From: an uncultured Albidiferax sp.
Lineage (GTDB): Bacteria; Pseudomonadota; Gammaproteobacteria; Burkholderiales; Burkholderiaceae_C
Length of the DNA stretch: 64,000 bases
Direction: 5' to 3'
Assembly: GCA_963513125.1 (NCBI GenBank)
Contig: CAUPPH010000001.1
Span: 386,532-450,531 of the forward strand
Part shown: one piece after another, positions 30,769 through 58,994 of the stretch
Numbering within the stretch: the first letter of the stretch is position 1
How the letters are laid out: each line of letters begins with the position of its first letter
Program-made: the position numbers and the translations under genes
The notes under the pieces: generated by a model
Told to the model about the DNA's origin: nothing
The model's input: only the letters and a program-made list of their open reading frames with translations
The model's database searches: none

Positions 30769-30857
30769 GAATACCGCAGAACCGGCTTTGCCGGGCTGCT
30801 GGTATTGCCCCCTGCAAGGGGGTTGGAGGCCACACGCAGTGGGCAAGCCTGGGGGTG
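30769..30857 (-). repeat. Structured repeat family 2, copy 1
   Basis: Aligns to 57393-57511 with compensatory changes; begins a few nt after the VOC gene stop. Confidence 0.8.
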
Positions 30858-30861
30858 TGCT

Positions 30862-31251
30862 TCATGTTTCGTAAAGTTCGAGGGGCAGGCCGTCGGGGTC
30901 GGCAAAAAAGGTGAAGCGTCGGCCTGTGAATTCATCGACCCGCACAGGTTCGACGATGATGCCATCCGCCTGCAGGCTGGCAATGTTGGCATCCAGATCC
31001 GCTACTACAAACGCCAAGTGCCGCAGCCCGCAAGACTCGGGCCGGGACGGGCGCGGCGGCGGGGCGGGGAACGAAAACAGCTCGATTTGCGAGCCATCGG
31101 GCAGCGCCAGATCCAGCTTGTACGACTGCCGCTCCACCCGCAGATTCTCAGTGACGATGCGCAGGCCCAGGATGCGGGTATAGAAATCTTTGGACCGCGC
31201 GTAGTCCGAGCAGATGATGGCGGCGTGGTGGAGGCGGGCGAGGTGCATCAT
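30862..31251 (-). CDS. VOC/glyoxalase-family protein (YaeR-like)
   Basis: LHHAAIICSDY..SK.FY, ELFSFP....RPS.PE.CGLRHLAF and FF.DPDGLPLELYE motifs. Confidence 0.92.
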   Translation of the reverse strand: MMHLARLHHAAIICSDYARSKDFYTRILGLRIVTENLRVERQSYKLDLALPDGSQIELFSFPAPPPRPSRPESCGLRHLAFVVADLDANIASLQADGIIVEPVRVDEFTGRRFTFFADPDGLPLELYET

Positions 31252-57289: not shown

Positions 57290-57305
57290 AGAGTTTCCAC
57301 TCCAC

Positions 57306-57368
57306 GCTATGCATTCAGGAGCTGCTTACGCCTATGGAATAAGCGCAAACCCCTTAAAAAGCACATAA
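57306..57368 (+). repeat. REP-like family 1 copy (intergenic)
   Basis: GCTATGCATTCAGGAGCTGCTTACGCCTATGGAATAAGCGCAAACCCCTTAAAAAGC. Confidence 0.85.
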
Positions 57369-57392
57369 CCCAAGGCACAGACACCCCTTCCA

Positions 57393-57511
57393 GAAACACC
57401 GTGGAACTGGCTTTGCCAGGCCACTGGTGTTGCCCCCCTGCGTGTCGTATCGGCTTTTCAAGACGATACGAGGGGGGTTGGCGGAGACACGAAGTGCGTA
57501 GCCTGGGGGTG
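57393..57511 (-). repeat. Structured repeat family 2, copy 2 (with extra internal hairpin)
   Basis: Aligns to 30769-30857; begins a few nt after the gltD stop. Confidence 0.8.
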
Positions 57512-57515
57512 AGCT

Positions 57516-58994
57516 CTATCTAGGCAAGTCGCTGAAACCCATGAGGAACTCGTCCACCGCCCGCGCAGCCTGGCGGCCTTCGCGGATGGCCCAGACGACT
57601 AACGATTGACCGCGGCGGATGTCGCCTGCTGCAAACACTTTGGGCACGTTGGTGGCATAGCCGCCACTGAACTCGGTGTGCGCCTTGGCATTGCCACGCG
57701 CATCCTTGTCGATACCGAAGGCATCCAGGATGTTGGCCACGGGGCTGACGAAGCCCATGGCCAGCAGCACCAGGTCGGCCTGCATCACGACTTCGGTGCC
57801 GGGGATTTCCACCAGCTTGCCGTCCTTGAACTCGACGCGCACGGTCTTCAGGCCGGTGACCTTGCCTTTTTCGCCGATGAACTCCTTGGTGGAGATGGCG
57901 AACTCGCGCTCGCAACCTTCGACGTGGCTGGAGCTGGTGCGCAGCTTGATCGGCCAGTAGGGCCAGGTCATGGGGCGGTTTTCTTCTTCGGGAGGCTGGG
58001 GCATGACCTCGAACTGGGTCACGCTGACCGCGCCGTGGCGGTTGCTGGTGCCTACGCAGTCGCTGCCGGTGTCGCCGCCGCCAATCACGATGACGCTCTT
58101 GCCATCGGCACGCAGTTGCGCCTTGACCTTGTCGCCTGCGTTGACCTTGTTTTGCTGGGGCAGGAATTCCATCGCGAAATGGATGCCGTCCAGCTCGCGG
58201 CCGGGCACGGGCAGGTCGCGCGACTGCTCGGCACCGCCGGTAAGGACTACCGCGTCAAAGTCTTTTTGCAGCTGCTCGGGGGTGATGGTTTCCTTGGCCC
58301 AGTTGGTGACCTTGGAGCCCTTGCCCAGCGGGTCTTTGGCCGCGCCGACCATCACGCCGGTGCGGAAGGTCACGCCTTCGGCCTGCATCTGTTCGACACG
58401 GCGGTCGATATGGCTCTTTTCCATCTTGAAGTCGGGAATGCCGTAGCGCAGCAGGCCGCCGACGCGGTCGTTCTTTTCGAACAGCGTCACGTCATGGCCC
58501 ACGCGGGCCAGTTGCTGTGCCGCCGCCAGGCCTGCGGGGCCGGAGCCGACTACGGCCACTTTTTTGCCGGTCTTGTGCGGGGCCACGCGGGGCTGGACCC
58601 AGCCCTCGTCCCAGGCGCGGTTGATGATGGCGTGCTCGATGGACTTGATGCCCACCGGCAGGTCGTTCACGTTCAGGGTGCAGGCCGCCTCGCAGGGTGC
58701 GGGGCAGATGCGGCCAGTGAACTCGGGGAAGTTGTTGGTGCTGTGCAGCACCTCGATGGCGTTCTTCCAGTCGCCGCGGTACACCAGATCGTTGAAGTCC
58801 GGAATGATGTTGTTGACCGGGCAACCGTTGTTGCAGAACGGAATGCCGCAGTCCATGCAGCGCGCGCCCTGGACCTTGGCCTGCGATTCGTCGAGACCGA
58901 CGACGAATTCTTTGTAGTGCTTGACGCGCTCAGCGGCGGGCTTGTAGCCCTCTTCGAGCCGCCCGTATTCCATGAAGCCTGTGACTTTACCCAT
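57516..58994 (-). CDS. gltD: Glutamate synthase small subunit
   Basis: RCMDCG.PFC...[25 protein letters not shown] and [10 protein letters not shown] motifs. Confidence 0.97.

Follow-up and report, generated by a model that had tools for sequence, protein, structure and literature searches.

The closest described systems to the repeat family reported here are the REP/BIME elements of E. coli (with the REPIN-RAYT systems of Pseudomonas), the ERIC/IRU elements of Yersinia and other enterobacteria, and the MIRU and Correia/NEMIS elements, together with the attC sites of integrons. REP/BIME elements, like the family, are dispersed, extragenic, GC-rich palindromic sequences found at the 3' ends of genes and inside operons. 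A large share of REPs lies within 15 nt of a stop codon, and the family is likewise stop-adjacent; both also form mosaics with other repeats. REPs, however, are single hairpins of 20-40 nt, often arranged as inverted pairs and tied to RAYT, whereas the unit of the family is 100-155 nt long, comprises three hairpins, stands in one orientation, is mostly single, and shows no RAYT flanking or co-occurrence. ERIC is also a miniature mobile element, and it folds as RNA, as is predicted for the family. ERIC copies that overlap or adjoin stop codons reportedly share one orientation, a property they have in common with the stop-adjacent copies described here. The two differ in that ERIC is a single long imperfect palindrome of 127 bp that has good TIRs and duplicates TA, while the family has three internal hairpins, a degenerate 3' repeat, non-TA duplications ranging from 3-4 to about 21 nt, and an unrelated sequence. 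In E. coli, REPs less than 16 nt from a stop codon stall ribosomes (Liang et al. 2015, as cited in PMC12306157), and the folding of ERIC is affected by ribosomes in an orientation-dependent manner (De Gregorio et al. 2005, as summarised in PMC2229807). The mechanism proposed for stop-adjacent ERICs in Yersinia, according to the same summary, is that the terminating ribosome hinders their folding, exposes an RNase E site and alters the fate of the upstream mRNA.

The MIRUs of Mycobacterium tuberculosis are intercistronic and gene-oriented, and the stop and start codons that adjoin them are preserved on insertion; many copies of the family are likewise intercistronic and gene-oriented, and overlapping stop and start codons were seen to be kept. 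Both also form tandem arrays, although in the family these were seen in a single genome, G140, from another family of the Burkholderiales. What defines MIRUs is their behaviour as tandem VNTRs, together with small in-frame ORFs, whereas copies of the present family are mostly single and lie behind stop codons. The Correia/NEMIS elements of Neisseria are MITEs that are co-transcribed with their neighbours, and their RNA hairpins are processed by RNase, as summarised in PMC2229807; they resemble the family in length (100-155 bp) and in having short and long forms that differ by an internal segment. Features of Correia elements that the family did not show are TIRs of 26 bp, duplication of TA, promoter activity and an IHF site. 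Lastly, attC sites are structure-conserved imperfect palindromes that begin where the preceding gene stops, either at its stop codon or immediately past it, and are always gene-oriented, which makes them similar in placement. They carry core sites (RYYYAAC/GTTRRRY) and are grouped in cassette arrays beside an integrase, whereas copies of the family lie dispersed behind core genes whose synteny is conserved, and inspection of its alignment revealed no core-site consensus. The family behaves like REPs close to stops and stop-adjacent ERICs, but as it does not match MITEs, REP-RAYT systems, ERIC or attC sites in all of their defining features, it is placed here among the stop-proximal structured repeats.

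Two copies of the family are present in the window, a 64,000-nt stretch of DNA from an uncultured Albidiferax sp. (Table 1). Both are on the minus strand and both directly follow a stop codon, as a preliminary description of this DNA had stated. That description had also pointed to paired arms that differ between the copies (AATACC/GGTATT against AACACC/GGTGTT, and CCGGC/GCCGG against CTGGC/GCCAG) and to an extra hairpin in copy 2; the alignment of copy 1 with copy 2 confirmed that the differences are compensatory, and the extra hairpin, of about 27 nt, was located within the loop of hairpin 2. Each part of the preliminary description proved correct; the core of copy 1 covers 30769-30861, and copy 2 covers approximately 57361-57515, extending further 3' than the 57393 first given. 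The two can be aligned over their entire length, and a genome-wide nhmmer search placed no other family members in the window. Copy 1 (nhmmer E-value, 1.5e-24; covariance model score, 116 bits) opens with AGCACACCCCCAGG, immediately 3' of the TGA, and is without a 3' tail or inverted repeat; an NYN-domain gene lies downstream, about 65 nt further on. Copy 2 opens with AGCTCACCCCCAGG at position 57515, immediately 3' of the TAG, and has an ABC ATPase gene downstream.

Table 1. Coordinates of the two copies in the 64,000-nt window, their helices and the stop codons they adjoin.
Feature	Position	Strand	Description
Copy 1, short form	30769..30861	minus	93-nt core: 5' C-tract motif and three hairpins
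Stop codon TGA	30862..30864	minus	stop of 129-aa glyoxalase/VOC gene (30862-31251); abuts copy 1
Copy 1, 5' motif	30846..30859	minus	CACACCCCCAGGCT; nearly invariant, single-stranded (family alignment)
Copy 1, hairpin 1	30829..30844	minus	variable module, GCCCAC...GTGTGGC type
Copy 1, hairpin 2	30808..30822	minus	CCCCCT-TGC-AGGGGG; family-wide invariant
Copy 1, hairpin 3	30770..30806	minus	15-bp interrupted stem, GGCAAAGCC top
Copy 2, long form	57361..57515	minus	about 155 nt; includes degenerate 3' tail/inverted-repeat remnant (57361-57393)
Stop codon TAG	57516..57518	minus	stop of 492-aa gltD-like gene (57516-58994); abuts copy 2
Copy 2, hairpin 1	57485..57499	minus	ACGCAC-TTC-GTGT type
Copy 2, hairpin 2	57433..57477	minus	extended by nested hairpin 57445-57471 (TCGTATC...GATACGA)
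Copy 2, hairpin 3	57395..57431	minus	

Searches with BLAST and an nhmmer profile revealed a dispersed family of 57 full and two partial copies, found on most contigs of the genome to which the window belongs (4.83 Mb, 63% GC; designated G000, with other G numbers denoting comparison genomes). Every one of the 15 other genomes of the genus carried it, as did five of the nine other genera sampled from the bacterial family of the host. An exact-pattern scan of public genomes returned matches in Variovorax, Rhodoferax/Albidiferax, Xylophilus, and other Comamonadaceae. First-look candidates numbered 97 in G000 and 149 in the sister species, G007. Across an even, order-wide sample of 151 genomes, the covariance model, with E-values that are rough because of a shortened calibration, added diverged copies from a single further genus of the host's family and from one genome belonging to a different Burkholderiales family; with just two more genomes added, the distribution must be considered patchy. 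In the latter genome (G140), the diverged copies at loci L255 and L261 form tandem arrays with periods of 86 or 120 nt, similar to those of MIRUs. The family had no match in Rfam at the gathering score (the best sub-threshold score was 14.7 bits, E = 2.5), full-text literature searches, on the motif as well as on Variovorax and Rhodoferax repeats, turned up no account of it, and PMC5217627 does not cover it. It is apparently an undescribed mobile repeat of the Comamonadaceae and some other Burkholderiales.

The core of the element is about 100 nt long, and reaches 125-155 nt in copies with a tail or a long hairpin 2. Read on the gene strand, the consensus begins with an AT-rich leader of 0-13 nt, followed by a nearly invariant 5' motif (GGCWCACCCCCAGGCT), a short hairpin 1 that occurs in several interchangeable variants across the family, the sequence CGCCAA, an invariant hairpin 2 (CCCCCT-TGC-AGGGGG), and hairpin 3, a 15-bp interrupted stem with GGCAAAGCC on top, after which come CTGGAAGG and the tail. 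The tail (...GCGTTCTGCCTGTAG...) is present in about half of the copies and repeats the 5' motif in an inverted, degenerate form. The long form, in which hairpin 2 is lengthened by a nested 27-nt hairpin, accounts for about nine copies. The nested hairpin was considered as an independent mini-element and rejected as such, as it was found solely inside copies of the family.

Covariation, which had been proposed from the two window copies, was borne out by an alignment of 150 distinct copies from many genomes. Hairpin 1 was 97% paired, with double-sided changes in five of its six pairs, and hairpin 3 was 99% paired, with double-sided changes in nine of 15 pairs and up to four pair types at each, while the invariant hairpin 2 was 99.4% paired and had none. 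Overall, 95.7% of cells were paired and 14 pairs showed double changes. None of 500 column shuffles matched the observed pairing or covariation, and when partners were slid out of register the pairing fell to 40-47%. Kinship among copies inflates the covariation counts, but the signal is nonetheless very large. The three helices were also kept in 30 diverged copies from two distant genomes (98.8% paired, with double changes in 12 of 27 pairs, in an alignment fitted to the model). An outer closing helix (CCAGG/CTGG) was dropped from the model, being 79.5% paired and showing no compensation. Wobble pairs on the gene strand comprised 58 G-U against 25 A-C when hairpin 1, where the alignment is uncertain, was included, and 22 against 11 when it was left out (p = 0.08). 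As the asymmetry is clear only with hairpin 1, it is no more than suggestive of RNA over single-stranded DNA as the folded form.

Placement relative to coding sequences was scored without gene calls, using same-strand open frames of at least 80 codons upstream. The stop codon of a long sense ORF was found no more than 16 nt upstream (1-14 nt before the anchor) in 46 of the 57 copies in G000, while random intergenic positions and strands were stop-adjacent in 9.9% of cases (p = 3e-36). TAA, TGA, and TAG were all used as adjoining stops. Other Comamonadaceae genomes gave a similar result (113 of 135 copies), the most frequent arrangement being a stop directly preceding GGCWCAC, as did a distant genus (eight of nine copies), and in G140 it is the first unit of each tandem array that abuts a stop. 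The copies are, therefore, not random relative to stops, being in sense orientation and stop-adjacent in 81-84% of cases. Some copies contain the stop within the element, either as the TGA in TGAACACC or as a TAA created in GCTAACC. By crude, home-made gene calls, 34 copies between co-directional genes were in sense orientation and six were antisense (p = 8e-6), and a further 13 lay between convergent genes. Many of the insertion sites are very short intercistronic spacers, so that closeness to a stop is partly forced, but the sense bias and the sharp mode of the distance still need targeting or selection besides the shortness of the spacers.

Seven of the 11 exceptions in G000 were antisense copies in front of gene starts, with the 5' end of the element no more than about 45 nt from the ATG, and 13-17 nt from it in five. 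The genes behind them are ppsR-, ubiA-, squalene-synthase-, purE-, ROK-, lipA-, and DUF35-like. Taken together with the majority at stops, these copies give the rule that the 5' end of the element faces a coding-sequence boundary, usually a stop. A pure 3'-UTR function does not explain the seven start-facing copies. At five of them (C2:291721, C16:41068, C2:498093, C11:22782, and C7:99936), a sequence complementary to the 5' motif (GGGGGTGAG or GGGGGTGTG) stands 13-17 nt before the ATG of a gene without any other Shine-Dalgarno sequence, and such antisense copies may supply or replace the ribosome-binding site. One of them, C7:99936 (-), forms with C7:98910 (+) an inverted pair about 1 kb apart that brackets a single ABC-ATPase gene, the sole pair of this kind in G000. 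At a locus in an uncultured Albidiferax MAG (L089:560-760), a copy has been inserted four codons upstream of a stop that shares nucleotides with the following start codon; translation continues into the copy in frame, and the protein gains about 50 residues.

Comparison of filled and empty sites revealed presence/absence polymorphism among congeners. The site of copy 1 was filled only in G000 and G013, and was empty in at least 10 congeners, in which the two genes are 5-22 nt apart. At the site of copy 2, the end of the protein (LPR-stop) is unchanged, and the element was present in six genomes, as short and as long forms and with a total of four different junctions, and absent from others. 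The sister species G007 has 31 copies with orthologous flanks in G000, and of these 10 were present and 21 absent in G000. Clean pairs of filled and empty alleles were found at several loci. One site was filled in opposite orientations in two genomes, other sites held different variants in different genomes, and decayed remnants with internal deletions also exist (L071 and L043). At four loci (that of copy 2, L037, L049, and L129), an Arg codon no more than two codons from the stop was AGA or AGG in filled alleles and CGN in empty ones, which may be due to chance or to a local AT preference.

The junctions were heterogeneous. Some loci resemble a 3-nt duplication of the stop codon, and the stop/start overlaps of empty alleles (GTGA, ATGA, TGATG, and one of 20 nt) are carried on both sides of the filled alleles. 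With the overlap duplicated at insertion, the stop and start codons of both genes stay intact. Duplications ranged in length from 3-4 nt to about 21 nt, with some of about 10-11 nt among them, and the largest flank duplication, 18 of 21 nt, was found in Variovorax ginsengisoli. Most filled/empty pairs, however, represented replacement rather than simple insertion, without a clean duplication, and exact flank repeats were barely above the null in a longest-common-substring test. A fixed TNA, or 3-bp, target duplication, which two loci had suggested, was rejected on these grounds and because TAG stops were as common as TAA and TGA. An IS911-like mode of insertion, beside look-alikes of the element's own ends, was also rejected, as empty sites were not enriched for them (mean best match of 6.42, against 6.47 for the null).

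The only intact RAYT/Y1 transposase gene of G000 (C1:450786-451112) is situated about 250 nt past the right edge of the window, and the genome carries one other fragment. Neither the gene nor the fragment is flanked by the family, and RAYT was rejected as the mobiliser. In three complete congeners (G003, G006, and G010) the element occurs without Y1_Tnp, and in three other members of the bacterial family (G019, G021, and G024) Y1_Tnp occurs without the element. A search of G000 for inverted pairs of the end motif around a transposase-sized gap found no autonomous IS with matching ends, and the sole inverted pair consisted of two copies of the element. The best copies pair a 5' CCCCCAGGCTACAG with a 3' CTGTGACCTGGG, but a good 3' repeat was present in only three of about 180 copies and the consensus tail is degenerate. 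The classical hallmarks of a MITE are, then, weak: the 3' repeat is poor, the duplication length is variable, and G000 has no partner IS.

Constraint on individual copies was assessed in 13 orthologous pairs of filled sites, eight of which came from the unbiased G007 list. The element core was 98.4% identical, the 60 nt after it 95.3%, codon positions 1 and 2 of the upstream gene 98.6%, and codon position 3 88.9%. The difference between the core and codon position 3 was highly significant (Fisher p = 1.6e-22), and the unbiased G007 subset gave much the same values (98.6% against 87.9%, p = 2e-17). Orthologous copies are about seven-fold more conserved than third codon positions. Conservation about as strong as that of amino-acid-changing positions suggests that the family probably has a function within the messenger RNA as well. 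The locus-specific 60-nt tail differed at no more than one position in 10 of the 13 pairs, and the leader, present in eight pairs, was identical in all except one, while flanking third codon positions differed by about 11%. The shared locus-specific leaders and tails indicate that these are the same insertions by descent, under constraint. At greater species distances the copy at a locus has often been swapped for another variant, which means that gene conversion or re-insertion also shapes the family, and could add to the apparent conservation.

The best explanation, to which we assign a probability of roughly 0.6, is that of a non-autonomous mobile repeat, docked at stop codons, transcribed with the upstream gene, and kept by purifying selection as a cis-acting RNA. 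The preliminary description had proposed either a 3'-UTR RNA structure under selection or a stop-codon-targeting MITE, and both parts of that reading are supported, since the family is mobile and stop-docked, and its fold, which would presumably act as RNA, is under selection. A point against this explanation is that single-sequence folding of copy 1 gave a z-score of -1.55, which is unexceptional for its GC content. It is rather unlikely that the family is a purely selfish, MITE-like repeat, with a fold that serves mobilisation only (for example, as hairpin DNA for a recombinase) and stops that are merely tolerated sites. The high turnover (21 of 31 copies in G007 absent from G000), the different variants or opposite orientations at one site in different genomes, the decayed remnants, and the variable number of first-look candidates among congeners would all be expected of such a repeat, and many targets are tiny spacers in which only stop-proximal insertions would be survivable. 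The identity of orthologous copies would then have to stem from gene conversion, or from hot spots that have recently received new insertions, but near-identical locus-specific tails and leaders, seen against about 11% change at third positions, fit descent and constraint better. In addition, the inverted repeat at the 3' end, indispensable to a selfish transposon, is the least conserved part of the element, its interior is the most conserved, and mere tolerance would not predict the bias towards sense orientation.

REP/BIME elements bind gyrase, IHF, or Pol I, or are cut by HUH enzymes, and the family could similarly act at the level of DNA, as a site that a protein binds or processes in double- or single-stranded form, its orientation following the replication or gene strand indirectly. 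As protein recognition would predict, the 5' motif, hairpin 2 and the loop of that hairpin do not covary but have a fixed sequence; the wobble asymmetry is borderline outside hairpin 1, and the family forms mosaics with other REP-like repeats. Orientation, however, tracks the adjacent gene, and position tracks its stop to within a few nucleotides, which would be natural for a role in RNA or translation; with no co-occurrence with the only Y1/HUH gene either, a DNA-level role appears quite improbable. A family of factor-independent, 'I-shaped' transcription terminators or attenuators, spread by a mobile element, would account for the location at gene ends, the stable GC-rich hairpins, and the 13 copies between convergent genes. 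Hairpin 3 is not followed by a U-tract, however, and the 34 copies between close co-directional genes, which overlapped or were contiguous before the insertion, would silence the downstream gene. No terminator-like site was detected at copy 1 or copy 2, and a weak, separate one lies downstream of copy 1. The missing U-tract and the mostly operon-internal position make a classical terminator role unlikely, and we consider this whole reading very improbable.

New copies land at gene boundaries, overwhelmingly 0-14 nt past a stop, with the 5' end of the element toward the gene, and where stop and start overlap the insertion event duplicates the overlap, so that both genes survive. Judging from its orientation, the inserted element would be transcribed as the 3' UTR of the upstream gene or as an intercistronic spacer. 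Purifying selection keeps the C-rich 5' motif and the three hairpins, as indicated by their covariation and by in-situ conservation like that of codon positions 1 and 2. The most likely role would be that of a cis-acting RNA structure at the end of a transcript or cistron, possibly as a barrier to 3' exonucleases or as a processing site. By analogy with the ERICs of Yersinia and the REPs of E. coli, folding of the element may be coupled to translation termination, because a ribosome at the stop codon would cover the 5' motif. From the spacing and general footprint sizes, the commonest arrangement would place the C-rich motif inside the stop-paused ribosome and hairpin 1 at the mRNA channel entrance. 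A bolder proposal, which we regard as unlikely, is a mobile, termination-coupled RNA module, the C-rich motif of which would be held open by the terminating ribosome; once the motif was released the element would refold, and each copy would report upstream translation to mRNA decay or to the expression of the next cistron. The element may also be installed at stop codons by a mechanism that gives variable-length duplications and involves neither a RAYT nor a classical DDE transposase.

The Comamonadaceae, including Variovorax, Rhodoferax, and relatives of Acidovorax, are major soil, water, and plant-associated bacteria, and to our knowledge their repeat content is almost undescribed. With tens of elements of the same fold per genome (57 in G000, and possibly more in relatives by first-look counts), often between formerly overlapping genes, the family is well suited to asking how repeats of the REP/ERIC kind join gene expression, and how the insertion of a mobile element can be directed to translation stops. 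For annotation, the covariance model is likewise of use, together with the placement rule, as the elements create spurious ORFs, lengthen the apparent gaps within operons, and are, rarely, translated as C-terminal extensions.

Other repeats were encountered alongside the family. A second, REP-like palindromic repeat of about 45 nt (GCTGCTAGCGCTTAT...GGCGGTAGCAGCTAT) is present in the window at approximately 57290-57345, on the minus strand, and is probably the repeat termed 'family 1' in the preliminary description. It is often found directly downstream of copies of the present family, producing mosaics at C2:291721, C12:149167, C7:147065, C1:516352, C27:4146, and C9:141580. A third repeat, CCCTCCCTCCCC-TTCG-GGGGAGGG...GTGGGGGC, occurs right after stop codons elsewhere in G000 (C9:108071-108180 and C8:50100-50190, both outside the window), and the sites that it holds there are occupied in other genomes by the element described in this study.
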